Shown here: one piece after another, positions 1-64,000 of the stretch | How positions within the stretch are numbered: the first letter of the stretch is position 1 | Layout of the letters: the number at the start of each line of letters is the position of its first letter | DNA from: Cyanidioschyzon merolae | Lineage: Eukaryota | Assembly (NCBI GenBank): GCA_000091205.1 | Contig: AP006492.2 | Strand: one strand, 5' to 3' | DNA: 64,000 nt | The notes under the pieces: generated by a model | The model's database searches: none | Seen by the model: the letters and a program-made list of their open reading frames with translations, nothing else | Told to the model about the DNA's origin: nothing | Position numbers and translations under genes: made by a program

Positions 1-2929
1 GGCATTACGAAGGTCTCTCACGTCACTCCAGCTCAGTTGGCAGCGGTCGACGGATGCTGATGGCGGCGTTAATGCCCTATTTCACGGCTTCTGGATATTG
101 TCAAGGTTCTACATGCAGAGGCAAAAGTTGCGACGTAGGCTTCGCTTGCCATTTCCATCTTCCTTTTATATAGCATCAGTGTCCACGTCGTAACCATTTC
201 GCCGTACGGTTGTCAGGTGTTCTCATGTGTCCGCCACATGGCCGCCTCCGAGGACTGCAATTTGGGGCGTAAGCGCATGCTTCAACACTTGGTATATGCC
301 CTTGACAGGAACAGATGGGTCCCGCTATACGCTCCTCCGTTTCCAAGCCTGGTACCGTACACTGTTATCACGGACTTCTTCGGGGCAATGTGCTTGACGA
401 GTACTGGATATGCTGAAGATGCAAGCGCGCGCTTTTATATTCAAAAGACGACTAATAGAGCGTGATGTTTTCATGATGAAACAATTATCGGCAGGAAAAT
501 CCAGGCTGGAGAGCAAGTCAAGAAATTCGATCCGTTTACTCCTGCATTGTGCGAAGCGTTTACGCACGCTTCTCTGAAAACAATCTTCGCAATGGCTCAA
601 GTCCGGGCCAACGACCCTTTCCCATGCAAACAGAAGAGATGGAAGGCCCTGGGACATATCCCGTTAGCAGTATCATGCCGGTGTGGAATGCCTTTCGTCA
701 ATGGCCGCAGAGTAAAATTTGTCTTCCGAACAGATTCGATTATTGGACGTAAGGAGATCATTGAACTTTTGGCGCGACCTTGCAAAGAAACCTCCGAGCG
801 TTGACTTCTGGTTATTTTCCTTGTTAATCCAGCAACATAAATTTTTGCATCCTCGAGTTGCTCCGGAACCGTAAAATATTAAAAATGAAAAAGACGTGAC
901 GTAAATATATAACCCGTAATGAAAAGAGAAGAGCGACACTCATTCTTATGAACTGGATGATGCTATCCGATATCTTTTTACGAACCCTTATTCGAGTGTG
1001 TTGCAAATCATCGTGGCCCCGGAGAGGTGACGGATTCTAGCGGCAAATATTCGAAGGCGCCGCTCTACAAAGAAGGAAGACAATCCTAAGTCTGGTTAGG
1101 AAGCCGTATGCACTTATTCCTGCATTTGGATTGTCGATGTCGTGCATCTAAAAAATCTCAAAATAAACTTACAGGCATGGACAGAGTGAGCAGTTCCGTG
1201 TACCATTTTAGTATAAAAGGGTTAAGGAGCTGGGTTTCCGCGCCTAGATGGCTGGGAGTTCAACCATTTCTGATTCGATGAAAAATGAAAGCAAGGCAAC
1301 GAAAGAAAACATTATCTGAACGAACCCTGTCGTTTGGTTTACTGAAGTTGTATTCACCACATGCATCAGAAATGACTGCAAGGGACTGAAAGTGCGACTA
1401 ACATCCAGTAACGGATATCTATAAAGAAACGGTTTTCGGGAGGATAACTTTGGGAGTCGCGCCTGACGTAGGGAGTGAACAAGAATTTTAGGCCGCTATG
1501 ACGTGACATGAGTTTCACGGACAGCGACATATCAGGCGACCAACAGACCTCGTGTTGGAAAGACGATTACCAGTTTGTCTGCTTCTGTCGATCATACCAC
1601 GAAACTAAGAAGCAGCTTTAGAAATAGTCCTTCAGACTTTATGACGAGCAGTGCTCTATGGATGACGAGAAGTTTCTGCAAGAGATTCTTCCGTTCACAA
1701 ACATAAGCCGCATCAGTATTCAGGCATCAAGAGGGCGACGAGATCGCATTCCGAAGCACGGTTACCAGAAGGGTTCTATCTAGAGAAAGCAATGGGGAGG
1801 TATCCCGACTGAATCTCCGCTCATAAATTCTCGATCATCTCATTTCGGATAAGGATGAATTGGTGCATGTCGCCCGAATGCATGCTGGACGCCGCCGTCT
1901 GGAATCGAGTTACACTCGCGCTCCGACAGAATTCAGATTGCGCGCTCGTTTTCGTACGCCGCGCACGTCGATTTTCGCTTGCAGAAATAAAATTTTTTGA
2001 TCAGCGGAAGGCTGTCACTTACAAACGATCACCCGTTGTGCGATTGATATCGTCTATCGGGACACCGCCCAGCCTTCCGTATTCCTATGTCCATTTCCCA
2101 CCAGCTCCCACCCATGCCTCCTCTAGATGCTAAATTTTTAGTTCGCGAGTTCCGCCATACCCCGACCGTGCCGCAAGTGTTCGCAATGGCGCCTGCAGCG
2201 CTCGTGGGGACGCAGTTCGGAAAGTCATGCTTTGCTCTACCACTGGGGCGTTCGCTCGGGCCGTCCTTCACCCGAAGCTGGGCTGGAACTGGTCGCTTTT
2301 CCGGGATACAACAGGCGATTTAGACGGATTCAGTGCCGGCGGCCGGAAGATACATTCTGATAGATCATAGTAATCAGTGCGCTGCCTGTACGCAGCTAAA
2401 ACACTCCCTGTCCAAAAACACACTGCGTTGTGGACGAGAGCCTCAGAGCTTACGGCAGTGCCTGCCACTTGCGGCTCGCCGAGCACTAGCCTAACGCAGT
2501 CGTCGGGGTCGCGGGAACTCCTGCCTCGAAGATATACTTTCGAATAAATGGAAAAAATTTCCATATTTCATCTTCCGCCTACGGGGAATAAATATGTTAA
2601 CGACCTTCATTTTAGCGGTAAGCGTCAGTGATTTTTTCCCACAAGAGTTCAACAGAATTGTTTTGAGTGCATAGCTGTTTCGGTATCGAGCCTGGCCAGG
2701 AGACATAATGGCGCTGTCCACTGGCTGCCTCCATTAAGGCGATTCAAGACGTTTTGCTTGTATGCATTCATCGATCTTAGCAGAGGGAGCGTCCATGAAC
2801 ATTATTACATTACCCAACAGAATTTTTTACCAGCTGTGAAACTGGTTCTTTCAGCATAGATATTTTGGCGCCATCGAGTCTCCCATGACCTGCAATTTTT
2901 ACTCGGAAAGATGCAAAAATGGAACACAA

Positions 2930-5900
2930 TTACTTTTCACCGCTCTGCCAAGGAAAACGCCCCCGTTGTACGTAAACGGAGCTCCAGTACTGCTGGAGTC
3001 CTAAATCATAGCACAACAGTGCTGTGCTCCAAGAAAGAATCCAAGGCCTTCTTTCTTGGCCACCTGTTTTAATTTCTTCCCGAGTGCATTGGACTTTAGC
3101 GCAGTGGCCATCCTGAGGACTAAGCGATTGCATTGAAATTCCGCCCGAAATGAGACTGCAGAACGCTCCAGAATCAGATAACCTTTTCCGATATCGATCG
3201 AGGCGTTGAACTCTCTTTGCGGAAGTTGCTTGCGCACATTGTTGCCTGTGGATTCACAAAATCGCAAGCTGCTAACTTTCCATTGACTCACCATCTAAAG
3301 GGCATTCAGCCTTCCGTATTCCATCTCCAGCGTCCGGCTCAGCGTTAATCTCTTTGTTTCTAGTTTTCTAAGCGTATACCCCTGCTCATGATGCGTGAAT
3401 GTCGTCCTGAGCGCTCCGAGGAGAATCGTACAGGGTAGGTACTTGCACTCGTTCTATGCTCTCGTGGAAGGAGCGGGAGTGCAGTCATTACGAGGTACAG
3501 CGTGTCCACCACCATAGGCTACCACAAAGCGACGTGACCAGTCGCTAATTTGCCTCCCCAGCTCATTGAACAAGTTGATAAATGCACGCGTCCTTCCTTT
3601 GAACAATCGATACATTGGCCAAACTCGCTCAGTCTCACGTAATTCTACGAAAGCTCGTAAGCGAGAGCCATTTGGACCGTCATGCACGCCCTTGGAAAGA
3701 AGCGAATAACCCATCTCGCGGTGCTCAGTACGGTGCTTAGAGCTTCGAGTTTGATACTGACGCATGCGTTCCACTTGCTGGCATGTATGAAAACGTCCAT
3801 CATGCGTGATTCTCGAGGATAGAGGGCCGAGGAAAAGTTGATCAGCTTCATCTGTTTCCCGTTCAGGTACTTGGCTTGTTTCTTCCGTTTTGTATGTATG
3901 GTATAGGCCGTGACACCCCTCCCTTTTCAAACAGTAATCCATTCCCTTCACGATGTCTTTCTCTTCGTGTACCCCGAATGGTGGCAAATGACTTACGTTG
4001 CCGTACTCAAGCCTTGATCTAAGAAAGCGCATGCAGGTTGATAAGCTCTAGGTCTTCATTGCCTCTGCAAAATTCTTTCCATATCCTCATTCCAAACGTG
4101 AAAACTTGGATGAGGTCCTCGCAGTTTTCGACAAATTGTTAGAATGCTTTATAATTGTTCCCAGAGACCAGCCGTATCGTGCAAAGGAAGGCATACATTG
4201 GAGTGCACATGTTTTTTAGATTCTATGATGAGATTTAAAGCCATATATGGCGACCGCATCGCGTAGGCGCTCGAGAGGACGAGGGCGTCCGGAGTCGGTG
4301 AAGAAGTTTTTCTTGACTGTTGAGGGTTCTCTTCTGGAACACGTAGAATCGCAACATGAAAGGAAAGCAGGTATCAGGCTTCAGCCATCCTTTGGATTGG
4401 ACCAGGATACGTTCGATGCAGAGACCAACAAGACGAGCTTTGAATCTATCCAGCGACTCTCGCTCTCGTTGGGACACCTTTCCCAAACTAACATCCAATC
4501 CGATCTCGTCCACAAAGAGCTCCTTATTTGCCGCTATTGACACCCCGAGGATTGCCTCGATTCGTCCCCATTTTTCTGGGCCAGTCAGGTGAGGCTGGAG
4601 CACATACAGGGTGTGCCGTATGAAGCGCCCACATTGACTCACATATAATGCTGTTTTCGGGGTTAGTTTGATCTTTGCTGGCTCCCACGCTTGTGTTGCG
4701 ATCGCCAACGCAGCAAGGCGACGCTTAAAGGCCTTCTGAGAACCATGTGTGCAAATATATGATACTACGATATATCCGTATTTCCTACTCTGTCGGAGCA
4801 TCAGTCGTATTGTTACATGAAGCTTTCATCGAATATGACGAGAGGGTGACGTGCAGCTGGCAGCCGCGTGTCCGGAGCTCGAACATATAGTTGCTTTACA
4901 AGGTGCATCAAGACGAGGGAAGCTATGACAGCCTTTGCTCTGTTGGGAAACTATGCGATTTCGAACTGCATGCTATACCTAATGTTTGGAAGAATCTCGC
5001 CGTTCCTGGTTTTCAATAGAGAGGCCCCGACGATGGTTTCAGAGCAGTTTTTCAGCTTCGACAGTTTTCCTTCCTCTCGCTCCTTGTCCTCTTTTCGGCA
5101 GGAGTTTCCTCTCGTTTGTCTGCTGGGAACTTCTTCGCTATACATAGGAGGGGCGGCATTAATGTGGCCCCTACATTCCATATGCATTTTTTGGAACTAA
5201 TACGCACTGGGTGGACAATTGCGTTGAATCTCGTCTTTTCAATGGATGTATCGATAATTCCTTAAGTAAATTTTTGTCACGTTTTTCGCCGCGAGCACTA
5301 CCACGGACCAATGTGCGCATTTCGGCTTCTGCCGGTCCACAATCAGAGAAGCAGCAAAGCAGATCGGGGTTTGTGAATGTAGCCAAAGATTTGTCGAACG
5401 GCTGTGTCACGGATGCGAATAAGTGGTCTATTGAATCGTGAGCTTGGAAACGGAGGTTGAGAATATAGAAGATGCCTCAAACCGGATTAAACCAGGCAGA
5501 AAACGCTTGGAAGAAGAGCTGTTCAATTTCAATCTCAGCAGCGTACTCCCTGACCGCCTTAGAGTCATGGGAAGCGGTGTTAAGCGAGAACGGAACGGGA
5601 ATACGTGCAAAGGGGAATCTACGAATTGCTGCGACGAAGCGTGAGGTTTCTTTACAGATCCCATTCGTTTAACGCTTTGTGGACGACCACACGGGTGGCT
5701 CCCCATTAGCGTTGATATTGTCGTTATTCTCGATTGTCTCTCTCTAATGATGGGGGGTTGCCCCTTTCCGAGCACGTATTCACAGGTCTCGAACTTCTCC
5801 CGAATGAAGTACCATCGAGTGAGAAAAGCGCCGGCCCTTTCTATAAGAAATGTGCGTGTTTCAGTGTGAAATCGATAGAGTGTTTCGCAATGCAAGACAG

Positions 5901-6310
5901 TATCAAAGTGAAGAGGGGGTTCTCACTTTTCTATTGGCACCTTTTCATCACCGTTCGTAACAACGGAGCGGAAACTTCACGCCCTCTTGCTTCTCACACC
6001 AAATTTGTAGGAGAACTTGGATTATGAAATGGTTTGACGACGAGATCGTCGTGGAGATACATTTTTTCAAGTTATGTTCTTGGTGCGCGACGTGCAAGAA
6101 AAGGACAAGAAGAAGGGTGGTTGAGCCATCTGCAACCATAGAATGACTGACTTGGACAAGCAAGACCGGTTTTCGCAAGCTAACGGCGACAGCACAACGT
6201 GTTTCTGCGGCCCTTTCAGTCTAGAATATGCAGTTTTCAGTTGAGTATCTGTGAGAAAAATAAACGAGAACGAAAGGATTTGTGTTTCCAGGTATGTGGA
6301 ATTCGCTGCT
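2930..6310 (-). repeat. Copy A of a roughly 3.4 kb multi-copy decayed coding element (pseudogene family or dead mobile element). It is broken into ORFs 3454-4032, 4235-4801, 4951-5187, 5171-5410 and 5428-5895 on the minus strand
   Basis: Homology to copy B runs along the whole length at nucleotide and protein level. The 19-mer gtttcagtgtgaaatcgat is shared. RFHTETRTFLIERAGAFLTRWYFIREKFETC matches RFHTETSTLSPRETAARRTR*EFIREKSQTC in B. GRFIRHTLYVLQPHLTGPEKWG matches GASFIAYMSVQMAHMDGFGHGWG. There are frame breaks between the pieces. Confidence 0.6.
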
Positions 6311-9223: not shown

Positions 9224-9400
9224 GCTACGGTAAGAAATAAACAATGCTATTCGTAAGGAGCGGTAAGAAGTAAGCGGCTCGATATACCGCCCCAATGGGG
9301 ATCGCCATGACGGCACGCGGAGCGTATCCAAATCCGTAACGGCCGGCAGCTGCCAAAATCTCACGTGTATCCTGCACGCTCCCAGACGTTTTTGTGCAGC

Positions 9401-10966
9401 ATGTCCTCCACAGTTCTGCGCCTGTTGTCGCCTTATTCGAATATTGTTGAGCGTTCCAGTGGTTTATTCCGCTATTACTGTTCAAGCGTCAGTACATTGA
9501 GTCAGTTGCGACACGCGGGGCAAACGAAAGCTTCTAATTATGATAACAAAACGACGGTTGTCTTCCTCGTTTCTGACAGACCAGGATCCCTGCGGAAAGC
9601 GCTAAGTATTTTCGACGAGGAGCACTTCAACTTAAGCGGCATAAGGAGCCAAGCTTCCCTACCGGATGACTCCGCAAACGATCGAGCGTTTGAAATTACA
9701 GTTAATGCCGAGTACGTGGGTTCCCGCGAGGTTCAGGGAGCTGACTGCGACCACTCGCCGAACAATCACAAGTCTGCACTGCTTTCTCGCGTTGTTCAGA
9801 AACTCGAAGACACAGGCGCGAGAGTCCGCTATATAATGCCCTCCCGTAGCGATGAACAAGGAGCAGTTGAAAAAGGCGGGAGCTGCGAGCGCCCTGTACC
9901 GCCACTGGGCGCTGTTTCAAACGCGGAAGTGGCGCTGAGCATGCCCTGGTTCCCTCGCCGTATCTCGGATCTTGACCGTTTTGCTTCACGTTGTCTCCAG
10001 TTTGGGGCTGAATTGGATGCAGATCACCCCGGATTCAGGGATGACGCGTACCGGAAGCGACGTGAGGTGATTGCGAATGCTGCGGCGCGCTATAAGCACG
10101 GAGATTCACTGTCTGATGTTGACTACACAGCTGCGGAACTCGATACTTGGCGAACAGTTTACACAGAACTCAAAACTCTGCGAGCAACGCATACCTCTCG
10201 ACGTTATCAGCACTCAATTCAGCTCCTTGAACGAGAGATTGGTTTTGGATCATACCGCATCCCACAGCTGTCGGAAGTGAGCAGATTTCTCAGCGAATGC
10301 ACTGGATGGACACTTCGGCCCGTCATGGGTTTACTCTCATCGCGGGACTTTTTGAATGGGCTTGCTTTCCGAGTTTTTCACTCCACGCAATATGTTCGAC
10401 ATCATTCACAGCCGCTCTACACACCGGAACCTGATGTTTGTCACGAGCTTTTAGGTCACATTCCCATGCTCTGTGACGAGGCCTTTTCAGAGTTGAACCA
10501 TCTGCTCGGTCTCGCATCGCTGGGTGCATCTGATGAGGATATTGTCAAGCTTTCGAGGTGCTACTGGTTCAGCGTGGAATTCGGACTCTGTCGCGAGGGA
10601 CCTGCAGAGGAGCTCAGGGCATACGGGGCCGGTCTGCTGTCGTCTTTTGGTGAGCTCAAGTATGCGCTCAGTGGGAAGCCCCAGACGCTCCCATGGAATG
10701 CTTTTGAAGCCGCTAAGCGCGAGTATCCAATCACTGATTACCAACCATCATATTTTGTTGCTCGATCCATAGAGGATGCGGTTGATCAGCTGCGCCTGTT
10801 CACTGAATCCGTAGAGAAACCTTTCGAGCTCCGGTTTAATCCTCATAACCGTAGCGTGTCGATTATTGATGATGCAACTCAGGTCGCTGCTTTTTCTAAC
10901 CAACTTAGCAATGATCTGCGGACTTTGGCGCGTACGCTCAGAAGGCTCGGAGTTTCGACCTCATGA
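9401..10966 (+). CDS. PAH: Biopterin-dependent aromatic amino acid hydroxylase (phenylalanine-4-hydroxylase-like) with an N-terminal ACT regulatory domain. First ATG used; the track starts at a GTG at 9365
   Basis: PDVCHELLGHIPML carries the two iron-ligating His residues. YWFSVEFGLCREG carries the iron-ligating Glu. The GAGLLSSFGEL motif is present. ACT-like VVFLVSDRPGSLRKALSIFDEEHFNL lies upstream. There is a roughly 45 aa S/R-rich N-terminal extension. Confidence 0.85.
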   Translation: MSSTVLRLLSPYSNIVERSSGLFRYYCSSVSTLSQLRHAGQTKASNYDNKTTVVFLVSDRPGSLRKALSIFDEEHFNLSGIRSQASLPDDSANDRAFEITVNAEYVGSREVQGADCDHSPNNHKSALLSRVVQKLEDTGARVRYIMPSRSDEQGAVEKGGSCERPVPPLGAVSNAEVALSMPWFPRRISDLDRFASRCLQFGAELDADHPGFRDDAYRKRREVIANAAARYKHGDSLSDVDYTAAELDTWRTVYTELKTLRATHTSRRYQHSIQLLEREIGFGSYRIPQLSEVSRFLSECTGWTLRPVMGLLSSRDFLNGLAFRVFHSTQYVRHHSQPLYTPEPDVCHELLGHIPMLCDEAFSELNHLLGLASLGASDEDIVKLSRCYWFSVEFGLCREGPAEELRAYGAGLLSSFGELKYALSGKPQTLPWNAFEAAKREYPITDYQPSYFVARSIEDAVDQLRLFTESVEKPFELRFNPHNRSVSIIDDATQVAAFSNQLSNDLRTLARTLRRLGVSTS

Positions 10967-11777
10967 TATCCAGAAACGCTTCCGAGGATACTTGAGATGA
11001 CCGCGCGAGATCGGAGGGCACAGTGATGTCGGACAGCTTCTTATACCGTTCTGCCCTCCAGCGCAACAGTTCTGGATAGCACATTCGCAGATTCTCCTCA
11101 TCCGAGTTTGCCTCGGGAAGTCTGACATACTTATCGCCCCACACGACAGGTTTTGGGCATTTGAAAAAAGTCTCAATCATCTCTGCAATGGACGATTCTG
11201 CAATTTCGAGGTACACAATTAAATAGTCTCGACGAATTTTTTCCTGACATTCCGTGCTGAGATACACGACGCTGCCTGTGGTATCTAACGCGAAATTCGT
11301 TTTCTTGCGAGGCCGCGCATTGGAAGTAATATCTTCCTCTATTTGTAAATATCGCCGCTCGCGCTCACGAAATGTCTCATGAAAAGGAAATCCCATCCAG
11401 CTTGCCAGTGCATCGGTGCCCGCTCCCTGAATATCGCCGAGCTCCTGCTGCAACAACTTTTCGATTTCCTCGTCGACGCTCACGATATCGAAACCGAGTT
11501 CAGTGGCCAATTTCCGAGAGCGGAAACTTTTCCCAGAGTTCGACATGCCAACGAAAGCGATAGAGAGTTCGTTCCGAGTAAGTTTTTCGTCAAAAACCTC
11601 ACGACTAAGTAGTTCTGATACCAACCAAGAGCAAAAACGCTTCCGGGTCCTTTCTCTGTGGTGCGCGATCGTGCTGCACGTGGCTCGCCGAGTGCAGCAA
11701 ACCGCAGCTGCTTCCCTTCCTATCCCCAGCTGCCGCTTCGTGCTCACTGCGAAGCAAGTAATTTTAAAAGCAGTCAT
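10938..11777 (-). CDS. P-loop kinase of the shikimate-kinase-like/NMP-kinase fold with a roughly 70 aa Arg-rich N-terminal presequence. It is convergent with PAH and the two CDS 3' ends overlap by 29 nt
   Basis: Walker A IAFVGMSNSGKSFRSRKLATELGFDIVSVDEEIEKL resembles the shikimate kinase GxxGxGKST...DxDxxIE block. ALDTTGSVVY resembles the SK ATGGG motif. A real ATG start was verified. Confidence 0.5.
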   Translation of the reverse strand: MTAFKITCFAVSTKRQLGIGREAAAVCCTRRATCSTIAHHRERTRKRFCSWLVSELLSREVFDEKLTRNELSIAFVGMSNSGKSFRSRKLATELGFDIVSVDEEIEKLLQQELGDIQGAGTDALASWMGFPFHETFRERERRYLQIEEDITSNARPRKKTNFALDTTGSVVYLSTECQEKIRRDYLIVYLEIAESSIAEMIETFFKCPKPVVWGDKYVRLPEANSDEENLRMCYPELLRWRAERYKKLSDITVPSDLARSSQVSSEAFLDIMRSKLRAF

Positions 11778-12312
11778 TTGTGGAAGTGCACGCCTTCTCT
11801 AGCTCCGACGTCCTTCGATGCGCTTCAGAGACCGACTACTGCACGGCTCCATCGCCAGCCGCCGCTGTTTGCCCCAAATCGGCGTTGATGCGACGTCCAT
11901 TGATCCAGCCTTCGGACGATACCCGCAGAATCCTTGTTTCGAACGCATGTTGTTCGGCGCTCAAATGCTCCCAACTCAATTTTATTCTACCCCCGCTGCT
12001 CCATGCTCCAGGGGATCGAAATAACAATCCAATGATCCGTATATATTGCAGGCGGATAGCCTGTTAGATGTATTCTCTACTGAACAGTGCACGGAGGACT
12101 ACATTCCTTATTCAAATCAGTCATAACACAGTTCTTTGATGGCTGAGGTACACTGCAAGAAAGACGTAGATGCGCTCTGCGTGAAAAACTGGTATTTTCA
12201 GTGCGCGCTTGCGGTAAATGAAAGAAAACAGTCCTTTGCTCACCTTACTAAAACCAAAAAGCGACGGTAGGAGCCACTATGGGCGTCTCTTTTTTCTCAA
12301 CAGCTTGTTCGT

Positions 12313-12890
12313 GTGTTCCTGTACACACTGGGATTCTGTCGCAAAAAAAGAGTCCAGTTCCACACACGGTTATTCTCTACCGGAATCGCAACACCAGGAT
12401 TCCTGAAACTCAGAGATGGGTATGAAGCAAAGGGGCGTCGGTTTGTTTTTCAGTTGATGGGAATTCCTTCGGATGAAACGGTGGTATCGTGTATGGGTAT
12501 TCGAGCAGCAGGGTGTCCATTGTGTTTACGATCGAGCTCGAAGCGAACAAAAGCATCCTTTGATGTGGCTGCAGTAGATTCATTTAGCGGCCTCAGTTTC
12601 GCTCGTACAGAGGGCTCATACCACACCACCCACTTCGTTGAATCATTGAAGACTTTTGCTCTTATGTTTGGCGAAGTTCTTCAATCGGAGAATGTGGTAT
12701 TCCACCACTAACGTTGTTTTCGAGCTTTTGCCGATTTTATAATGTAGAGCTGCTTTTCATTCCTTCGCACGCTCCGTGGTTCGACCCCATCGAAAGGGTG
12801 TTTTCTATCTTGAAAGGTAATGATCGCTACACTGAGCGAAACGATGAAGCTTTCAGCGAGCTGACACATCGGGGCACATGATGCCATTCT
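12313..12890 (+). mobile_element. Decayed Tc1/mariner/IS630-superfamily DDE transposase remnant (C-terminal catalytic region, frameshifted)
   Basis: FARTEGSYHTTHFVESLKTF resembles the (V/I)FQQDNAxxHT block. In a +2 frame, NVELLFIPSHAPWFDPIERVFSILK matches the LPPYSPDLNPIE signature around the third catalytic acidic residue. An in-frame stop follows soon after. Confidence 0.5.
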
Positions 12891-12992
12891 TCCGCAAGTC
12901 CATCTCCCTCCAGAAAGGTTCTTACCTCGGGCATAAGAAGCGCGTTCGTTTTCAAAATTAAAAATCTAAGGGATGAGCTGGGGCGCAGGCTT

Positions 12993-13358
12993 TTGAAGGC
13001 CCAGATAGAGAGAATGCAACGGAGCGCCTCGGCTGTAGTAAAGCCTGGAGAGCTGGCAGAGGACCAAATGGCACTGGGGGCACGAGTTCTGGAAATCCTT
13101 GCACTAAAAAATTCTACCAGTCTTGATAAACGCATGGAGCTCGTGCACCGAGACTTCAACGCCCCCATCCATATCAGGATGTGTGCGGCGCTGAAAATGC
13201 GACCCGAGGTGTTGACGCGAACGAACTTTGTGGGGCAGCCGCTTAGGCTCGAAGTGTGCAAGGAGAAATTGAAGCCGATGGCAGGGGGCCATTCGAAAAA
13301 AACTGTGAGAAGTCTGTGGGTCGTTATTTATTTACCCCCAGGTCGCGAAAGGTTTTAG
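12993..13358 (+). repeat. Copy F1 of a second small dispersed coding-derived repeat (121 aa ORF)
   Basis: LEILALKNSTSLDKRMELVHRDFNAPIHIRMCAALKMRPEVLTRTNFVGQPLRLEV aligns with GGLLALVRTTNDGKKRMELVNHDFNAAVYDRRCAVLKTRPAELTRTKFVEQPFILYV* at 27926-28130. Nucleotide identity is about 75%. Confidence 0.55.
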
Positions 13359-14219
13359 CTCCACTGAGCAGCCGTGGAGCTTTCCCAGTCAAGATGCAAC
13401 GCACAGACCTATATGGAGATGTTACGACCTGCCCAAGCGATAGGGTGCAAACTTGAGTGTCCTTTTTGTTAGACTTTTCCCAACATAGGGTGCTCGGTGA
13501 ATCTGAATGAACTCTGGAGACTGCGGGACTCCAAAGGTGGCTGTGTTGGCGAGAATTATCGCACGGATCGGATTGCTGCCCGTTCAGGCTCGAAAAGAAG
13601 GTTTCTTAGGGGTTTCCACCACGAATGACTTCACCGAAGCCTTACTGCAGCCTGCTGAGAGCGATGTAGATTTATAAGAAGGATTGCAAACGTTCGCGCA
13701 TGAATGCTGAGGTCCTTACTTAATTCTTAGCATCGTTCTTTCAAAACGCTTGCGCGCTTTCATCACTTGCTCGTTGTTCGCTCTTTTCGGAGCAACATGT
13801 TCCGCAAGCACATTTCTTTCAATCAAATTCAAAACTGACTTAGATAGCGATTATGCTGTTCCCCAGAGGAACGAATCCGCCAAAAGTGAAATAAAAGGCA
13901 AGGTTCGAAGCTTCTCCACAAGGACCGAAAGCCATCCTCATCGAGCTCTTATCTGGTATGCGCATGTTCGCAAGGTTCTAGAAAATTACAGCTCAACGGG
14001 TTTAGCATCTCTCGGTTACCCTCTATAGACATCAAGAGCGCTGGAAATCTGCTCTCTGCTGTATCTGGGGAACCATGAGCATCAACACCGTTCGTGGCAA
14101 TCGAGCGTCAGCTACGAGCAAGCGACGCGCGAACAAATTAGGTACCAATCGGAGACACTTTTCAGCCGTTGTGCGCAGTTGTGGCGGAAGACCCTTGCGG
14201 TTATCATTTACCGACAGAG

Positions 14220-20485: not shown

Positions 20486-23400
20486 CTATGCTCCGTTCAA
20501 AAATGCTTTGGCAACAGCCGGAATTGACGTAATCCAGACTTTATCGTTGCCTTTAACGTTTTTTCTGTCGATAACGGAGCTCGGAAGTCTGTAATACCGC
20601 CTTATTTGAAGCGTATGTGAGAGAGATGACCAGGAAGCATTCGTAAAAAGAAGCTTATACGTGCTACTGTTATAGACAGTTGTAAAAGACACGATTTTTC
20701 TAGCGTATGCTCATAGCGGATGACTCGTTCATTTTTATTTTTACATGTTTGTAGAGGATTCTGCTGTAAATCACTGATCTCACACAAGAGCAAATGCGTC
20801 CTCCAAGGAACCTGTGACAACTCCCAACGTGTTCAACGTCCGGCATTCGTCGCCGAGGCTGCACAGACTGTGTTACCATGAAGCAACATAGTTCTTATCC
20901 TTTGGCATACATTCGCAGTATATTAGAACTTTGGGCATCATAAATCAACATGTTTGGCGAAGCTTGACCATAGATTCATGTTACTCAGGTTGTGCACCCC
21001 TTGCAGAAGATGCAAACTTTTTGAGCATGGCGACGTACTCCGGCGGCGTACGAGTGCGTTATCGCTTTAACATTAGTTTCCGTCGACGTTCCATTGAGTA
21101 GCGACATGAACTCGATCGTTCGTTCGTACCCTGAAACAGACCAGCAGGACCGGACTGTGTAGACGAGGCAAGAAGCGCTATGTGAAAGCATTTACGTATA
21201 TTTTACCCTGTCATCGAGGTGCTGTACAAAAAGACAGCGAAATTACAACTGTTTCTGTTCCTTTGTTGAAGAGTATCCCACCAGCATTCAATAAGACAGG
21301 ATTTGTGTCCAGGTATTGGGTAAGGGATCGCCCTAAATGTGATAAAACGGAGAGGCTCCTGTACATAGTGATGTTGAATAGCAGAACACTACTGTGGTTC
21401 ACGAGTATTCCCGAAAAATTTCTCCCGGTGTATATCTACGGCGCTCCGGTCTTGGCAAAATGCTGAACTGAACCGTCCCTGTGCCATGGCCGAAGCGAGA
21501 ACCCAATGACCTCTCTCCTGATCACTGCTTCTTTTCATCGAAAGTCTTCAGTGTTTCTTCGAACTGCTCACACCTAGTACTGAAATATTTCCGCAAAATC
21601 TCGCCAGATGCAAAGCCGCTGGACATTGCAGAAGCACCAGACATTGCCGGATATTGATCAGGGCGTTCAAGTCTCGGTGTAGAAAAGTGCTTTCGTGCTG
21701 CGTCGCTGGTGAAATCCCATCTCAGCAATCCGTTCACATGTGATTGCCTCGCCGTCTGTCCTTCTGTTAGCGTACCGTACAGCATGCAGAGCATCTGGCT
21801 CTGTTTCACGCTCTTGTTCTCTAACTGATTCAGCATACAAGCGTGCTTGTGATGAATGTACGTCGTCTCGTAGTCATAGACGGAGATCGTACAATATCGA
21901 TTCCTGTGGTCTTTGAACGCTTCGGCAGCGGGCGCGAGCGTGCAGTATTCACGCTCTACAGCACGTGCAGCAATCTAGGCTTCCTTAAACCGACGCGGTA
22001 TGTTGGCAAGTTTTGCGTCCAACGAAGTGAATATGTTGGGAAATGTGCACCTGATGTACCCGTACACGCGGAAGCGCTGGCGAACCCAGCCCGATCGCAT
22101 GCACCCCCACCCGTGCCCGAAACCGTCCATATGAGCCATTTGGACGCTCATGTAAGCTATGAATGAAGCGCCCAGAGCGTTTCCCCTGTTCGATACAGGG
22201 CAGGGAACGTCGCGATGGGTCCTGACACCATCATTCGACCGGTGGTTGTACCTCGTGGCCTCCATCACGTCCCATTCCCAATGAAACCGAATCCAGGAAA
22301 ATCAGATTGTATGGTACGTTCAGCGCCGAGCACCAGTTGTTGCACAAAGGAGTTATCGAAAGATACCACAGCGATGTGTGCAGCAGGCATGCCCTGCGTC
22401 ATGAACGCCCCCGAGGAGGTGCTCGTCAATCTCCGTACAAGCGCGGAAGCTGTCCGAGGTAAATTCGAATAGAAGGCTATGCAAATCCGAATGGCGTTAT
22501 GCATGACAAGTTTTAAAAGATTCCCGCAGTTGATGTGTTTGGGTAGTGAGGCCTCGAAAAGTGTTTCAGCCTGGTCATTCCGATTTTGCAGGGGCTTACT
22601 TGCTGTCACCTCTCGTCCTCTTCTCGAGAGGATCCTTCTTTTTCTGGAAGTTTCTTCTCCTTCACCTTAAGTTGACGGCGCCGCATGAATGTTGCCGTTA
22701 TATTCAATATCCGTTTTTTTCGGATTCCAGACGCTCTGGATGGACGGCGGCACTGAGTCTTGCCTTTACTATGCATGTAGCGACTGTTCTTCAAGAACGT
22801 TTCCTCATGCTCTCCGTCGCGAGGGCGACAACGGCCCGACGCGTGCCCCTCCGCCTGCTCCGGTGCTCGAGTGGATGTGCAACACAGCAGTCCACGGCTA
22901 CTCAAAGCAGAGAACGCTACACCGAAGGACACGTCTTCACGGATGAGAGCAGCTCTTCTTTTGATCCGCGAGCATAAAAAAGGAGGTTTACGGCAGAAAA
23001 GACGTTTTCGACTGGATTTTTCGATGGAGAACATACTGGCACGAAGAGCAACTCCACGCCGATCGTAGCTGCTTCCTCTCTGTCCGGTTGCGATTGATGG
23101 AAAGCGGCATTGTCTGAGAGCGAAACAGATGGATCTGGAGCGCAGAAGCTCTATAATGGTTCGACGTAGCAAAATGTGCTGAACCGTGGTGTCGGTCGAG
23201 CGGTTCGTCGTTGACTCACGAATGCATCGCCGATGAGTCTCGTTTTGTGGCCATGCGGACTTGGCTCTTCTTTAATAACAGCCGTGAGCCTCTCTTTGAA
23301 TTCCCATATGCATGTCTGGCTCTTCTCCCGAATGAATTCTTATCGAGTGCGACGAGCAGCCGTCTCTCTTGGACTCAGCGTTGACGTTTCAGTGTGAAAT

Positions 23401-23880
23401 CGATCAAGCGCTATTCAACGCGCGACGGTGTCGCGCAGAAATGTGCTTTTCGCCTCGGCCACCAGCGTCTCTTCATCACCGTACGTGTCAACGGTTAGGA
23501 AACTTAGTATCCTGTTGATTATTCAGCAGAATTCATTAGAAAGCTTACGGAGTGAAATGGAATGACGAGGAGACAGCCGTGCAGGCACTGTTTGATGAGA
23601 TATGTTTCTTTGGCATGACATTCAGAATAAGAACTACAAGAAGGGTCGCTTATCCATCTGCTGACCTTAGAATGATTGAATTCTATAAGTAAAGCAGCTT
23701 TTCGCAAGCCAGCGACGACAGCAAAGCATCTTTCCGCGACCTTTTTCCAATAAAAACAAGAAATGCCTTGTGTTATATACCTGAGAGAACAAAAAACGAA
23801 CACAATAAGAGCCTAGTGGTATAATTATTCCAGAATCCGCTGCTCTAAATATATCTGCTAGCATGCTGGTGCTGTCGCGA
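20486..23880 (-). repeat. Copy B (full length, about 3.4 kb) of the decayed element family, with in-frame stops and frameshifts (pseudogene state)
   Basis: Colinear with copy A at an offset of about +17560 and about 65-70% nt identity. There is a stop codon where A has Trp in the conserved RFHTET...FIREK block. VKGNDKVWITSIPAVAKAF matches A's IKTGGQERRPWILSWSTAL. Confidence 0.6.
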
Positions 23881-24246: not shown

Positions 24247-25590
24247 TCACGGCTTCGTCTCGATGAAAACATCGTTCTTCGCCGTGGCAGTCTCATACCA
24301 AGACAAAAGTTGAGAAAAGCGCTGCTCAGCTCGCACGACAACTTCCCTCAGGTTTGCCTCGAAAGGTTTGTCTCCGTGCGTGCCCAGTAGATCCTGATCT
24401 GATAGACCACACCCAGGAGATTTAACCTCGCCCAGGAAGACGTGATAAGGCTGTAATCGCTGCCACGCGTCTACCTTGTTCAAAAACGGTGTATGTGCGT
24501 CTGGCTGGAGAACTTTCACGTAATCTCTTGTAGGTGCCATCTCAAGTCGCCGACGCTTGTGAGCTAGCTCCGTATCGGAAGCGAAGATAGTGCACTTTGG
24601 GGTTCGAGGTAGATCTGACGGTTTTCGGTCTTGAAAAGGCATCAACAGCGCTTCGTCGAAAACTTGATCCAGACCTTGGCGCTCAGGCTCACGAAAGAGA
24701 CTCGCCAACTCAGCGCCATAATGAAGCGCTTTTCTTATGGCTACTCGAGTCTCTCCAATACGCTGCTCCGCTTCTTCGCGCCGGAGCTTTTGCAGCGCGA
24801 GCGATATGTCATTTAGTGTTAAGTCATCTCGCTCTATGTGCTCTGTAGGCCGCGGTTTTTGCTCGGCGGCAAAAGATTGCGGTACTTTGTGCAACCCCTG
24901 TGCGTCTTGAATACCTAGAGCCGCATCGAGTTCCTCAAGGGCGACTTTGCTCCGAATAACTTCTGTCTCTGCCTGGTGTTGGAGCGCGAATAGCGCCTGT
25001 CGCGCGCGAAATAGATCAACTTCGAGCTTCCGTCGCGCGCCTTCGAGCTCCTCAAGAGAAGCGCTAACACTTGTCGTTGTACCGGATCGTTTTGCTCGAA
25101 TAGTTAATGTAATAGCGGCCAACTGTTGTTCCCGTCTTCGCAGAAACTCCTCCAATTGACTCTGGTCCGCCCTAAGACGCTCCGCAGGCGACCGGGCCGC
25201 CTTCGTCACGAACTCGTTCACGCTCGGCTTTGAACTAGACGCGTCTCGTAAACGTCCACTACTCCCCGAGACTCCGTCTAGCCCCGAGGAAAACTCACCT
25301 CTGCCCAAACTTGACAGCCCTGGCGAAGGAGGCGACCATCTCGGATCCGTCATACCAGCCGGAGAGTCGAACATCACTTGATCGGCGCTCCTGATGAGGC
25401 GACGTCTGCTTCGAGGTGATTGTAGCGGTGCACCGGAGCGCCGCCTGATGCGCTCCGTCGTCGACGCAACTGATGTCACGTGACATGGCGCTACTGCTGC
25501 CGCTTTTTTTCGTTTGACAAAACGTACATTGACCATGGATCCCGGATTACGGGATAGATGTGCATTGACCTTCGGGGAAGCGTCCAGCAT
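24247..25590 (-). CDS. Hypothetical coiled-coil protein (447 aa) with a low-complexity S/R-rich N-terminus
   Basis: Uninterrupted ORF with a verified ATG start (atgctggacgct). Central heptad-rich region (LEELEGARRKLEVDLFRARQALFALQHQAETEV). No family recognised. Confidence 0.5.
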   Translation of the reverse strand: MLDASPKVNAHLSRNPGSMVNVRFVKRKKAAAVAPCHVTSVASTTERIRRRSGAPLQSPRSRRRLIRSADQVMFDSPAGMTDPRWSPPSPGLSSLGRGEFSSGLDGVSGSSGRLRDASSSKPSVNEFVTKAARSPAERLRADQSQLEEFLRRREQQLAAITLTIRAKRSGTTTSVSASLEELEGARRKLEVDLFRARQALFALQHQAETEVIRSKVALEELDAALGIQDAQGLHKVPQSFAAEQKPRPTEHIERDDLTLNDISLALQKLRREEAEQRIGETRVAIRKALHYGAELASLFREPERQGLDQVFDEALLMPFQDRKPSDLPRTPKCTIFASDTELAHKRRRLEMAPTRDYVKVLQPDAHTPFLNKVDAWQRLQPYHVFLGEVKSPGCGLSDQDLLGTHGDKPFEANLREVVVRAEQRFSQLLSWYETATAKNDVFIETKP

Positions 25591-26161
25591 GCTGCGCTAT
25601 ACTCACTCCCAAGTTCCACTACTTATACTTCCTTTCTTCTATAAAGCGCGCTTGATATGCGCTCCTTCATATCTGGCAGGTATAAGATACGGCGGGTATC
25701 TCGCCGTATGGGCGAATCGCAGTCCTGATCGTTCGCAGACTCGGCTGGAAACACGCGATGCCAAGTTCGGAGCGTACACTATTGCTGGTGGCCTTATTTT
25801 ATTCACGACAGTGGCATGGCATGGCGAGCTCAAGGAAGTAGCCCTAAAGTACAAACTGCATCTGCGTTGAAGTCGTAGCAAAGTATAGTTTTTCAGTTGA
25901 ATCGTGTCTCTACCCCGAAGTGAGTGTATTCAAATGATTTTTCGCGGTTTATAGCAGAAGCGATCAATGTGCGTTCATTTGCAAAAATAAATAAAAAGGA
26001 TAGTTATGGAAATGGAAGTGGAGGGTCCTCGAAACACCGGTATCGCCGGCTGGCGGGAGCGACGGAAACGAGTCCCGACCAAAGTGAGACAAGACAAGAC
26101 CAAGAAGTAAAAGAGGGAGGCGCGACGTCAAAGGCTGCAAGAAAGACGACACTGCGACGAG

Positions 26162-26797
26162 ATGGTGGTGAAAGCCTGTCTTCTTGGACATATCAACGAT
26201 CCGTACAAGCAAAAGTTGCTAGAGGCCGTCAGAAAGCTTGTCGAGTCGTACTCGATGAGTATGATAAGGGACTCTTCAGGACGAATGCATTTGATGAAGG
26301 AGATATATCTCGACGTTATGGACATCAAAACCGTCGAGGCTCTGGAAGAGTTTTTCAACAAGACTTTTATTCGTCACCTGATGCTTGGCACAGGGGAAAC
26401 GTCGAGGAAAAGTGAGCGAGTGCACGACCTCCGCGAAAACATCGCCGACTTCCGCTTCAACCGTACTCGATACAGGGGTGACTGGCGCATTTACGCATAC
26501 GGGGCGATGAAGCACTTCACGATCCTACAGAACCATGTGACCATGAACCTCGAACGTTTCTTGATACGCTCTGTCTTCGTGCCGTACCCGGGCCTGTCTT
26601 ACAAAGCGATATGGGCCATCATCGGGGGCATCACGAACGATCGACAGAAGGAACAGGATATCGAATTCTTCGACAAGAAGGCATCACACTGGAGCATGAA
26701 TGAAGCTTCTGTGAAACATGCCGCTATTCAAGAGCACCGTGCGATCTTGGGGCTCGACAACCCAGCAGCAAAGGGTATCAGTTATAATAATGGATGA
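26162..26797 (+). CDS. Hypothetical protein (211 aa), no recognised domain
   Basis: Uninterrupted ORF with a verified ATG start and non-repetitive composition. Confidence 0.35.
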   Translation: MVVKACLLGHINDPYKQKLLEAVRKLVESYSMSMIRDSSGRMHLMKEIYLDVMDIKTVEALEEFFNKTFIRHLMLGTGETSRKSERVHDLRENIADFRFNRTRYRGDWRIYAYGAMKHFTILQNHVTMNLERFLIRSVFVPYPGLSYKAIWAIIGGITNDRQKEQDIEFFDKKASHWSMNEASVKHAAIQEHRAILGLDNPAAKGISYNNG

Positions 26798-27925
26798 AGA
26801 CAGGTGTTATCCCATCATTCTGTGGTGTTTAGTGTTTCTGAATCGAGAACTCGAACGCAAGCGGAGATGGAGCAGAGTGTGCGAAAAATGAAGAGTCGTT
26901 GAAACTGAAGAGTTCCCTACTAGAAAAGCGCGTGAACGTCGTCCCGTTTTGGAACATCAAAAGACATTTTGTTCCAATCGACTCCGCAGCGCTCAATGGC
27001 AACATAAAGGAGATCACTCCGGAGTTCGATATACGGAATATAGAGTTCACCGGCGAAAACCAGGAGACGTACTGGAAGAATATCTTCGATTTGAAACGTA
27101 TCAAAACGAACAAAAAAACTATTCACCGGGATGATCGACACCGATAGAGTCTTCATTTGTGTTCATTATCGGCGCTTGAAAGCGGGCCGCCCTTGTACGT
27201 CTTCGATATCGCCCTCGGCGAAGCATGAAGATGTGAACGAGGCAGGTCCTGCGACGCGGGAAGTGCAGAAAAACGACTTTGTCATAGGCGCGGGCCCGGG
27301 AACATGAATATCGTTACCATCGCGGCACACAAAAATGGGGAAGATGGCATTGACGGTATCTCAAGTCAGAAAGACTTGGATCTTGTAAAGAGCTCAAGAG
27401 CAAGACATTACCGAGACTCGGGTTTAATGAATGCAAGGGCGAAATGTGAGACGTGCAGTGCAAGAGTGAAAGAGAATCTGGAAGCGATCAGCCAGGAGAC
27501 GAGTCGCGGAGCGGACTTAAGAGCTTTTCGGGAGTTCACGAAAATTTGCGTTGCTCATGACGAGGCGCTCTGGAACGAGTGTACAAAGCCCCAGTGGGCT
27601 CGTCTGCGTATGAATCTATACTGTGGGAAGCAGCGTGCATTCGCTAACGTTTTGAATCAGATGAGCGCCCTCAAGGGGGACAAGAGTCAGAGGCGTGTAA
27701 TAGCATACAGAGCAGGGCGCAGGGTGTCCAAAAAAGAAGCATACCTGCTCCACCGACAAGAGCGTCCAAGGAGTGCGCACACCGTTTTGTCACAATACCT
27801 ATAGATCAGTTCCGGACGTCCTATACACACCATGAGCTGGGATGTACACTTCAGAGGGTCGAGATAGTAAAGTGCCAGCGGAGCCATAAGGATATTGAAA
27901 ATGCGTAGTGCTGACGGAAGAGTAA

Positions 27926-28130
27926 AGGGGAAGAAGGGCGAAAGTTGGAGGATTGCTTGCACTGGTGCGTACAACCAACGACGGCAAGAAACGCATGGAG
28001 CTTGTGAATCATGACTTTAATGCCGCCGTCTATGACAGGAGATGTGCAGTGCTAAAAACAAGACCGGCGGAGTTGACGCGAACGAAATTCGTGGAGCAGC
28101 CTTTCATACTCTATGTGTAAAACAAGCTGA
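27926..28130 (+). pseudogene. Copy F2 of the F repeat, with a TAA where F1 has Cys (pseudogene fragment)
   Basis: See F1. The in-frame stop at GRRAKVG marks the 5' boundary and TAA replaces TGC at the 3' end. Confidence 0.5.
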
Positions 28131-28245
28131 AACCCATAACAGGCGGCCGGTAGATAGAGTTCGGGAGGCAGCTTCGAGTCAGTGAATATATGTCCTCTAT
28201 GGTCGCGAAACGTTTTCGCTCCTTTGATCACCTTGCTGGTTGTCA

Positions 28246-62400: not shown

Positions 62401-63759
62401 CTGTGGGAGCAGTCCAGCACCAGGAAGGGCGCCCGGTCGACTCGACCGGTTGGCGCTGGTGCTGCAGTACTTGTCGCTCATGTTGCAGTTGCACACCATG
62501 TATCGCAACTGCATGTTCGTCTTGAAAAAGGCTCTGCAACTCGTTCCGAAGCGAGAGTCGAGACACTGGCGACAAACTCCAGGCACTCTCCCAGAAGGCT
62601 TCGAGGGCCTCGTAGAGGGCCGCAACCACAGCACCTCGATGTTGCTGTTGCTGTTGCTGTTGCTGTTGCGCTCGATAGATACGAATACAGGCCACGAGGT
62701 CCCGAATGCTCATAGCAGGCTGCTGGAGCATACGCTGACGCTGGAGAAGCCATTCGAGGGCGCGCTTCCAGAGTTCCAGCACCAGCGGTGGTTCGCTTGC
62801 CAACAGCTCCGCAGCCACCGGGAAGAGATCATCGCAGGAGCCCTCATAGGGTATCCATATCTCGGTAAAGCGATTCCGTATGGCAGCGGAGAGTTCCTTC
62901 TTGCCAAAGTCACCGCTGGGGTTCATACAAGCGAAGACGCCAAAGCCCGGAGCTGCCTGCACCTCTGGAAGGGGTTCACCTCCGTGTTCACTGAGCACCA
63001 GTTTGCCTGCGGGTTCTAGCACACTGTTCAGACGCTCCACCACAGCGTCGTCGATCATGTTGATTTCATCAATCAGGAGGAACGCACCTTGTCTCATCGC
63101 CGAGGTGAGTGCTCCATCTTGCCACTTGAAACGAGGTTTTCTCGTGCTCGTAACCACTTTGGATGCCGTTGTAGCGCAACTCTGCGGCACGGCAGTCGAT
63201 GGAGGATCGTTCAGGGCCTCTGTGCTCACTACGGGAACGTAACGACCTACGAGGTCCGCAGCTTCCGTATGACGATGACCATTCAGGGTATAGAGTGGCC
63301 GATTCAGGGCAGCAGCTAATACGGCACAGACCGTGCTTTTGCCGATACCGGTCTCACCAATTAGAAGTACCGGTTCTTGGTTAAGAATGGCGTGTAAAGC
63401 GAGTCCTAGTACGCGTTGCAGACTCGGAACCATGACGAGTCCCAATGCCTCCACCGCAGTTGCCTCAATGCGTTGCCACAGGAGTGTCCCCAACGGCACC
63501 GAGCCCGATCGATGCAACGCGTTGCCAGTTTGGTGATGTCGCTGCTGTTGCTGCTGCTGCGTCTGATAGACTTGATCTGCGCTTGCTTGGGGCTGCTGTT
63601 GCGGCATTTCTGCCTCATGGTCTTGATCTGCGCCTGTACTGTCGAATAGATTCAACCAGGGACACTGGTCGCGCTCAGGTAGCGAATCCAGCAGTTCCCG
63701 GAGCGTCAACGGTGGAAGCACATCCACCATCGCCATGATGGTATGCTCCCTAGTCACCG

Positions 63760-63801
<42 letters not shown>

Positions 63802-64000
63802 GCTCGCTTGTCGACGCTTGCACGCCACTGGACGTCCTCGCGTCATTTCGTGGTGACTCCTCCACGACACCCAGACCTATGTGTTGACAGAGTACTCTCC
63901 AGACAGCGTTACGTTCCGCGGGTTCGCGCAGGCGCTCCACCAGCAAACAACGACCGTGGAAACGTAGCGCTTGCCGATCACGTGCTCGCCGGTTGGCCCA
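50477..64000 (-). CDS. MDN1: Midasin (MDN1), partial. The C-terminal roughly 4500 aa including the VWA/MIDAS domain are present. The N-terminus (AAA1) lies beyond the window end because the reading frame is still open at 64000
   Basis: Successive AAA P-loops are GETGIGKST, GPPGVGKTQ and GPASCGKAS, with Walker B ILVDELNLA. The long D/E-rich linker is present. C-terminal DIVVAVDDSASMHESGA...LLLILSDGR is the MIDAS/VWA motif. Confidence 0.9.
57489..57724 (-). repeat. In-frame 78-bp x3 tandem repeat inside the midasin CDS, encoding a 26-aa unit
   Basis: The unit gcgactcgcggactgctcggtttccgaacgaccgtgctcttcgatgccaagcaccggtgcagcagtcggatgttgaaa repeats with period 78 (cggttt at 57505, 57583, 57661). 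The protein reads FEHPTAAPVL(C/G)IEEH(D/G)RSET(E/G)QSASR three times. Confidence 0.85.
63756..63800 (-). repeat. (CAG)n / (GCT)n trinucleotide run encoding poly-Ala in midasin. It is one of several codon-triplet microsatellites in this gene
   Basis: cagcagcagcagcagcagcagcagcagcagcagca. Similar runs are at 58535-58566, 62650-62680 (gttgct x5, poly-Gln) and 61455-61500. Confidence 0.8.

Follow-up and report, generated by a model that had tools for sequence, protein, structure and literature searches.

A decayed IS630-type transposase running into a Fanzor1 remnant on chromosome 10 of Cyanidioschyzon merolae

Does the run of broken reading frames next to the shikimate-kinase-like gene CMJ067C, on chromosome 10 of the nuclear genome of Cyanidioschyzon merolae 10D, preserve a DNA transposon and, if it does, what did that element carry? 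The locus lies in a stretch of 64,000 nucleotides, hereafter the window, in which an earlier note had seen at 12313–12890 a fossil Tc1/IS630-type DDE transposase. That call was right, but its extent, its damage and one of its motifs had to be redrawn, and the fossil reaches beyond the proposed range on both sides (Table 1). What lies here is very probably the decayed copy of a ~1.4-kb Cyanidiales DNA transposon family, a deletion derivative of a two-gene element that combined an IS630-type transposase with Fanzor1.

The transposase pseudogene and its lesions

The sequence is homologous to DDE transposases. Against Pfam DDE_3 (PF13358, cut-off 28.6 bits), the PIE block 'FIPSHAPWFDPIE' alone scored 27.2 bits (3.9e-6), a naive stitch of the frames 29.5 bits (8e-7) over a match of only ~30 residues, and the copy stitched along the path of the alignment described below 34.5 bits (2.2e-8), covering profile positions 13–135 of 146. 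The earlier note had proposed that a missing DDE_3 match on stitched frames would speak against it; the match is positive, and the PIE block that it had singled out is a true DDE_3 signature. The NCBIfam IS630 profile (NF033545, an equivalog model with a cut-off of 100 bits) recognises only the PIE block of the decayed copy (29.3 bits, 5.6e-7); the intact relatives P0099 and P0068 score 113 and 130.5 bits, the consensus of the repeat family 127.2 bits and the transposase of the intact locus L055 135.7 bits. Searched exhaustively with HMMER, 1.84 billion protein representatives gave 101 matches: the open reading frame (ORF) itself, recovered from a metagenome, dozens of short decayed fragments (40–57% identity) and, for the rest, intact proteins of 295–301 residues with an N-terminal helix-turn-helix (HTH) and a complete DDE_3 domain, covering query residues 6–178. 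Relatives matched the window by tblastn with E values from 1e-19 to 3e-36. The naive stitched query had no match among 5.8 billion proteins in a word-indexed search. Among solved structures, a profile of the intact relatives matched SB100X (E 1e-5) and Mos1 (E 1e-3).

A frameshift-aware protein-to-DNA aligner was written for the purpose and run with the intact P0068 and P0099 against window 11900–13000. The alignment spans 12050–12919 and residues 7–297 of ~300, at 38–39% identity over 280 codons, with a score of 302; across 25 shuffles the score averaged 37 and never rose above 50, and the reverse complement reached 35. The start ATG stands at 12032, where 'MIRIYCRRIAC*MYSLLNSARR...' faces the relatives' 'MYPLDRRRVAVNVYECIQSLRK...', and the HTH part follows at ~12050–12250 ('ISHNTVL*WL' against 'VSHSTIARWL'), the intact relatives matching HTH_23, HTH_Tnp_Tc3_2 and HTH_32. 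Where a single frameshift had been thought to split the blocks, the alignment gives about five in-frame stops (12065, 12137, 12167 or 12249, 12474 and 12709) and about six frameshifts (near 12164/12212, 12294, 12445, 12510, 12709–12737 and 12867). The open ORF 12313–12711 ends '...EGSYHTTHFVESLKTFALMFGEVLQSENVVFHH*', and ORF 12714–12881, in another frame, reads '...NVELLFIPSHAPWFDPIERVFSILKG...'.

In the family consensus and the intact relatives the catalytic triad is D (in SxDET), D (in LLDNV) and E (in NPIE); 35 residues separate the second D from the E, hence DD35E. The window copy retains the first Asp and the Glu, and its second Asp is replaced by Glu. In the first block, 'FSVDGNSFG*', the Asp codon is found at 12456–12458, the Glu is changed to Gly and a stop codon, TGA, follows at 12474–12476; the block lies in a frame other than that of the open ORF. 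'PSDETVV', picked by eye in the open frame as the first catalytic motif, was ruled out by the frameshift-aware alignment, which places 'FSVDGNSFG*' there. The motif 'SYHTTH' had been read as a DNAxxH-like block; 'GSYHTTHFVESL' aligns with the conserved 'GSYNTxxFVEFL' block and is therefore not DNAxxH, the true second-Asp block being 'SENVVFHH' further downstream, with Asp to Glu at 12688–12690 and an in-frame TAA at 12709–12711. The third block corresponds to the 'LLFIPSHAPWFDPIE' of the earlier note and keeps its catalytic Glu codon at 12792–12794.

At the 3' end, the family-type stop TGA stands at 12879–12881, and C-terminal similarity to the intact relatives goes on in another frame to 12919. 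Many family fragments (P0047–P0078) stop at a common '...AEAFSTR*', intact relatives being ~25 residues longer, and the tail beyond that stop is recognisable in the window in another frame (12869–12919). Because so many fragments share this stop, the C-terminal tail may have been out of frame already in the master copy that was amplified.

The Fanzor1 stub, the 1.4-kb family and its intact relatives

The transposase fossil runs directly into a Fanzor1 stub, which corresponds to the end of the published CMe-1 protein. CMe-1 was aligned and listed as Fanzor1 by Bao & Jurka 2013 (PMC3627910); Fanzors are RNA-guided DNA endonucleases (PMC10432273, PMC10530073) whose part in maintaining transposons is as yet hypothetical (PMC10530073). 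CMe-1 residues 576–728 match 12864–13322 by tblastn (44% identity, E 1.6e-27), and nt 2737–3083 of the CMe-1A consensus match 12973–13316 by blastn (69% identity, E 8e-31). The stub sits in a stop-free frame, 12882–13358, which resembles window 27989–28101, and it shares one frame with the transposase tail both in the window and in the consensus. It keeps the RuvC-III motif 'RDFNA' (13149–13163, within 'HRDFNAPIHI' at 13146–13175) and lacks RuvC-I and RuvC-II; the split RuvC site (D ... E in [TS][TS] context ... RD), present in intact relatives as GADPGNTNI, VDEFRTS and NRDFNAAINI, is incomplete, and what survives is the remnant of a gene and no longer a Fanzor protein. Judged from its sequence, the window copy encodes nothing functional, because the frame is broken, the second Asp has become Glu, the stub is without two of the three RuvC motifs and the whole is ~20% diverged.

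The right end of the element was also inspected for structure. RNAalifold, run on the terminal ~230 nt of 20 copies, found no conserved 3'-end RNA structure of the kind expected of an omega (guide) RNA (-1.44 kcal/mol, covariation +0.3), and neither Rfam nor a tRNA scan gave any match in the window. A hairpin with a perfect 7-bp stem (13350–13382, +; GCTCCAC TGAGCAGCC GTGGAGC) stands astride the right border; its distal arm falls outside the family consensus, and covariation support for it was not found. The published CMe-1A consensus likewise has a terminal GC-rich hairpin (GCCGCCA...TGGCGGC).

The window copy belongs to a repeat family. A metagenome scan with a single consensus peptide gave 75 loci, and hot-spring metagenome contigs hold dozens of family copies; most transposase-bearing hot-spring loci consist of a ~0.9–1.0-kb transposase fossil, a gap of ~0–150 bp and CMe-1 residues ~607–730 only, on the same strand. 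Alignment of 21 copies with their flanks, which are unrelated from copy to copy, yielded a majority-rule consensus of ~1.42 kb (1417 bp), at whose borders conservation rises and falls sharply. Nucleotides 9–1415 of this consensus align by blastn with window 11972–13369, at 79.7% identity over the full length. The consensus restores a 279-residue transposase (SVDETCFGR, LLLDNVAFHHS, PPYAPWFNPIE; DDE_3 81.1 bits, 9.3e-23) that is near-intact, one stop and one homopolymer frameshift being left. The stub is part of the same consensus, with 77% identity to CMe-1A nt 2737–3084. All 21 copies are dead, each with different lesions.

A paralogous transposase fossil was seen on a hot-spring contig (L038:244–1654, 70% DNA identity to window 12103–12840), broken near its 3' end by TE-N2_CMe (635 bp), which is the CMe-1A 5' end (consensus nt 6–622, 77% identity). 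One Cyanidiales repeat has here been inserted into another. We had considered the locus as a composite of transposase and CMe-1A 5' untranslated region, and set it aside as uninformative since the junction looks like the nested TE-N2_CMe insertion.

Complete two-gene elements exist. Loci L006, L007 and L011, from viral contigs scanned with an alignment of intact transposases, and L053, L055, L063, L065 and L079, from brine and other samples, have an intact transposase followed in the same order by a full-length Fanzor1. On L007, a giant-virus metagenome-assembled genome (MAG) contig, the two ORFs (403–1353 and 1343–3649) are bracketed exactly by an inverted repeat of 28 nt, 75% complementary, with outer TA. 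The contigs of L007 and L008 bear GVMAG names. Intact pairs on contigs of giant-virus type (L055, L007, L008) hint at live members of the element family in giant viruses. At L055 (1395–7921), an adjoining ORF of 1109 residues resembles, by eye only, a viral D5-type primase-helicase.

The same pairing occurs twice more in the window, in two older transposase fossils on the minus strand that are each followed by a Fanzor1 part. Copy 2 has six stops and one frameshift, with the whole catalytic triad (D, D, E) still present and a stitched DDE_3 match of 1.3e-5; residues 351–586 of the protein P0001 likewise match its Fanzor1 part at 21590–22301 (-). Copy 3 has five stops and three frameshifts, its second Asp is lost and a stop stands in place of its catalytic Glu codon. 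The pairing of transposase and Fanzor1 is not accidental, because it is found in these two further pairs, in the intact two-gene relatives and at a junction that recurs in hot springs. The idea that such remnants are rare in this compact genome does not hold: two more fossils of this kind and a CMe-1A copy lie in the same 64 kb, dozens lie in hot-spring contigs, and 1755 class II elements have been annotated in C. merolae (bioRxiv 10.1101/2022.10.24.513474). Nor could the insertion be dated as an ancient invasion, the only syntenic sequences found for the window being strains or contigs 99–100% identical to it.

Table 1. Coordinates in the window of the element, its parts and related features
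Feature	Position	Strand	Evidence
Whole decayed element, copy 1: IS630-type transposase pseudogene and Fanzor1 3' stub	11972–13369	+	blastn, family consensus
Transposase pseudogene, ~290 codons, DD35E	12032–12919	+	Frameshift-aware alignment to P0068, P0099
First catalytic block 'FSVDGNSFG*'	12447–12476	+	Alignment; relatives FSxDETSFGR
'SYHTTH', upstream of second Asp	12616–12633	+	Aligns with conserved 'GSYNTxxF(V/L)EFL' block
Second catalytic block 'QSENVVFHH*'	12682–12711	+	Alignment; relatives LLDNVxFHHS
Third catalytic block 'LLFIPSHAPWFDPIERVFSILKG'	12750–12818	+	Pfam DDE_3 match, alignments; relatives LLxxPPYSPWFNPIExxFSIVKR
Fanzor1 stub, last ~130–150 codons of published CMe-1 protein	12936–13322	+	tblastn, blastn
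Transposase fossil copy 2, older	22923–23746	-	P0099 residues 7–282, 34% identity; tblastn E 7e-30
Fanzor1 C-terminal part downstream of copy 2	21590–22301	-	tblastn CMe-1 464–699, 29–50%, E 1.5e-24
Transposase fossil copy 3, older	5399–6181	-	P0099 residues 19–281, 33% identity; tblastn E 7e-18
Fanzor1 part downstream of copy 3	3058–4104	-	tblastn CMe-1 363–715, 27% identity, E 1.5e-22
CMe-1A copy, frameshifted, no adjacent transposase	25838–28183	+	blastn consensus nt 740–3092, 81.3% identity
CMJ067C, shikimate-kinase-like gene	10938–11777	-	Annotated protein, exact sequence match

Origin of the element and competing explanations

The ancestor would have been a two-gene element with an IS630-type transposase (IS630/Tc1/mariner superfamily, DD35E) followed on the same strand by Fanzor1 (TnpB-like). 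An internal deletion may then have taken most of Fanzor1, leaving the transposase, the last ~130–150 Fanzor codons and the right end. This shortened 1.4-kb element of transposase and stub would have multiplied in Cyanidiales, probably by cut-and-paste into TA or TATA sites, and then died out, and the present copy presumably drifts neutrally.

Several points weigh against this account. A full-length composite was not recovered in a demonstrably Cyanidiales contig, and for this reason the deletion is inferred. The Cyanidiales origin of the hot-spring contigs is itself indirect, drawn from the same samples holding contigs 99–100% identical to the window. The consensus ends have no terminal inverted repeat above chance (a 7-nt GTTTCAC/GTGAAAC, whose score 111 of 500 shuffles equal), and no convincing inverted repeat was found in the flanks of the window copy; the TA target-site duplication is likewise absent at the borders of the window copy, which read CAAA on the left and AGCC on the right. 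Within the family, the one sign that fits TA targeting comes from the flanks of other copies, where the majority rule over the 21 copies gives TATA before and TATATA after the element. As to the Fanzor side, a diverse Fanzor-family profile matched a single solved structure, the Guillardia theta Fanzor1 (9cer), and weakly (E 0.029), narrow profiles matched none of the sequences of solved structures, and an AlphaFold2 model of the Fanzor relative P0001 from a 17-sequence alignment was too poor to confirm a TnpB/Cas12-like fold (mean predicted local distance difference test score 34.4, predicted template modelling score 0.21). Finally, relative to the consensus, the stub of the window copy has no lesion in 127 codons, against 12 in 272 codons of the adjoining transposase, and over the 21 copies the counts are 32 in 2212 and 173 in 5706 codons. 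The lesion density in the stub, about half that of the transposase, may come from bias in alignment or counting. We do not claim selection on the stub, because at the amino-acid level it is no closer to the consensus than the transposase is and short local alignments bias the count.

Could the two parts be unrelated neighbours, a transposase-only IS630-type element beside a separate, 5'-truncated CMe-1A-like Fanzor insertion? Nested insertion does occur at L038, the region around the element is rich in repeats and CMe-1A has ~150 copies (PMC3627910), but the identical junction is seen again in the majority of hot-spring copies and belongs to the consensus, and the intact relatives have both genes, in this order, within one unit bounded by inverted repeats. 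We regard this explanation as improbable. Still less probable is that the fossil descends from a giant-virus segment that had integrated, and not from a cellular transposon. The closest intact two-gene relatives do lie on giant-virus MAG contigs (L007 and L008), and L055 has the primase-helicase-like ORF at its side; the neighbours in the window, however, are ordinary C. merolae genes, conservation among the copies ends sharply at 1.4 kb, and the element is multi-copy with unrelated flanks.

The broken frame could also be seen as a live or domesticated gene whose frame changes are short introns, encoding a transposase-derived protein or a transposase-Fanzor fusion. In fact, a GT-AG interval of 53 nt at 12697–12749 restores the frame between the two ORFs, and the common frame of transposase tail and stub and the lesion-free 127 codons of the stub agree with such a product. 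Yet this putative intron was rejected, because it is homologous to coding sequence of the relatives, '*RCFRAFADF' aligning with 'SGCVRAFADSIG', its 'NVE' falls within the Pfam match, and at least ten more stops and frameshifts are spread across the ORF. Moreover, this hot-spring red alga has introns in only 26 genes (PMC11050394), the lesions differ among all 21 copies, and the stub has neither RuvC-I nor RuvC-II. A live gene is thus hardly credible. Chance resemblance, with a PIE-like motif arising by coincidence in non-coding DNA, is refuted: although the first Pfam match was short and at the threshold, below it for the block alone, and the word-indexed search was empty, homology extends over residues 7–297 far above every shuffle, tblastn reaches 3e-36 and DNA identity to the 21-copy consensus is 79.7%.

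Known elements, genomic setting and meaning

The fossil belongs to a known kind of element, although the family itself is not found in the searchable literature. Fanzor1 within Mariner/Tc elements has already been published (PMC3627910; PMC10530073), the Fanzor1-carrying examples being PUl-1 of Pythium ultimum and PGv-1 of Phaeocystis globosa virus (PMC3627910). Like our family, they have a 5' DDE transposase and a 3' Fanzor1 on the same strand, and the layout of L007 is the same, the inner motif AGAATGTTCC of its inverted repeat being close to GAGAATGTCC in the terminal repeat of PUl-1. Their unit, however, measures 3.4–3.6 kb and has TA target duplications and terminal inverted repeats of 24–33 bp, whereas the window copy is a 1.4-kb derivative with only the last ~130–150 Fanzor codons and neither feature clear. 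The PUl-1 transposase is DD44E by our count, as against DD35E here, and did not match the window by tblastn.

Bacterial IS630 transposases (NF033545) share with the window family the HTH N-terminus, the DDE triad, a length of ~300 residues and the PPYSPxxNPIE motif. The family differs by its place in a eukaryotic nuclear genome and on giant-virus contigs, by the signature PPYSPWFNPIE with LLDNVxFHHS, and by its link to Fanzor1, which is not a trait of bacterial IS630. Sleeping Beauty (5cr4) and Mos1 (3hos) have a related catalytic domain and are far more distant than IS630; the spacing known for Tc1/mariner is DD34E or DD34D, whereas here it is DD35E in a shorter protein of ~300 residues. Within C. 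merolae, no IS630/Tc1/mariner-type element is mentioned in the searchable literature, a scope outside which Repbase lies; one survey of its transposable elements (TEs) lists Mutator, Helitron, CACTA and 40% 'unknown' (bioRxiv 10.1101/2022.10.24.513474).

The sole Fanzor1 family described in the alga is CMe-1A, reported as without terminal inverted repeats and of 'TE classification unknown', whose ~150 copies are ~80% identical to a 3169-bp consensus that encodes a 734-residue Fanzor1 (PMC3627910). The 3' end of the CMe-1 ORF and the stub are homologous (69% DNA identity in the window, 77% between the two consensus sequences), and both families are ~20% diverged from their own consensus. CMe-1A differs in encoding no transposase, traces of which were not found in its consensus, and its right end lies ~60 nt further, whereas the window family ends at about the Fanzor stop codon. 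The CMe-1A copy in the window extends over 25515–25636 and 25838–28222 (+), without consensus nt ~119–739; the stitched protein of 26.0–28.1 kb matches intact ~590-residue (586) DUF8286 metagenome proteins at 51% identity (E 1e-175). Its first ~120 nt (25515–25636) overlap the 5' end of ORF 24247–25590 (-), which has a GLTSCR1-like domain and whose start region may abut transposon sequence or be built on it.

The genes around the element are ordinary C. merolae genes, for an aromatic amino-acid hydroxylase, an SKI-like protein, Miro and a methyltransferase, and of seven long ORFs of the window that were compared by exact sequence, six are annotated 10D proteins on a chromosome of 839,707 bp, CMJ067C and CMJ082C among them. 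Between the left end of the element (11972) and the start codon of CMJ067C (11777), upstream of that gene, lie ~195 bp; a place in its promoter region, as the earlier note had it, is plausible. On its other side CMJ067C converges with the aromatic amino-acid hydroxylase gene (9365–10966, +; Biopterin_H 3.5e-144, with an ACT-like region at the N-terminus), the two ORFs sharing 29 nt at their 3' ends. At the far end of the window a single midasin-like ORF of 4489 codons with three dynein-related AAA_5 domains (50477–63946, -) explains the rise in GC content from ~0.50 to ~0.60 over the last 14 kb.

For the annotation, the anatomy of the pseudogene is corrected, and this part of chromosome 10 appears as a small graveyard of transposase and Fanzor elements. 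Knowledge of how such elements work is unchanged, the window copy being inert. Still, a reconstructable IS630-type family with a CMe-1-like stub and giant-virus relatives offers a hypothesis for the origin of the alga's Fanzor elements, and links its unclassified Fanzor lineage to an IS630-type transposase. Perhaps, though we consider it rather unlikely, the IS630-type family is the lost autonomous partner or the direct ancestor of CMe-1A. One transposase-Fanzor1 element, probably delivered by a giant virus, would then have entered Cyanidiales and split into a lineage of transposase and stub and a lineage with Fanzor only. If this is true, CMe-1A would be assigned to the IS630/Tc1/mariner superfamily, and the alga would provide a natural example of a Fanzor gene that survived its transposase.

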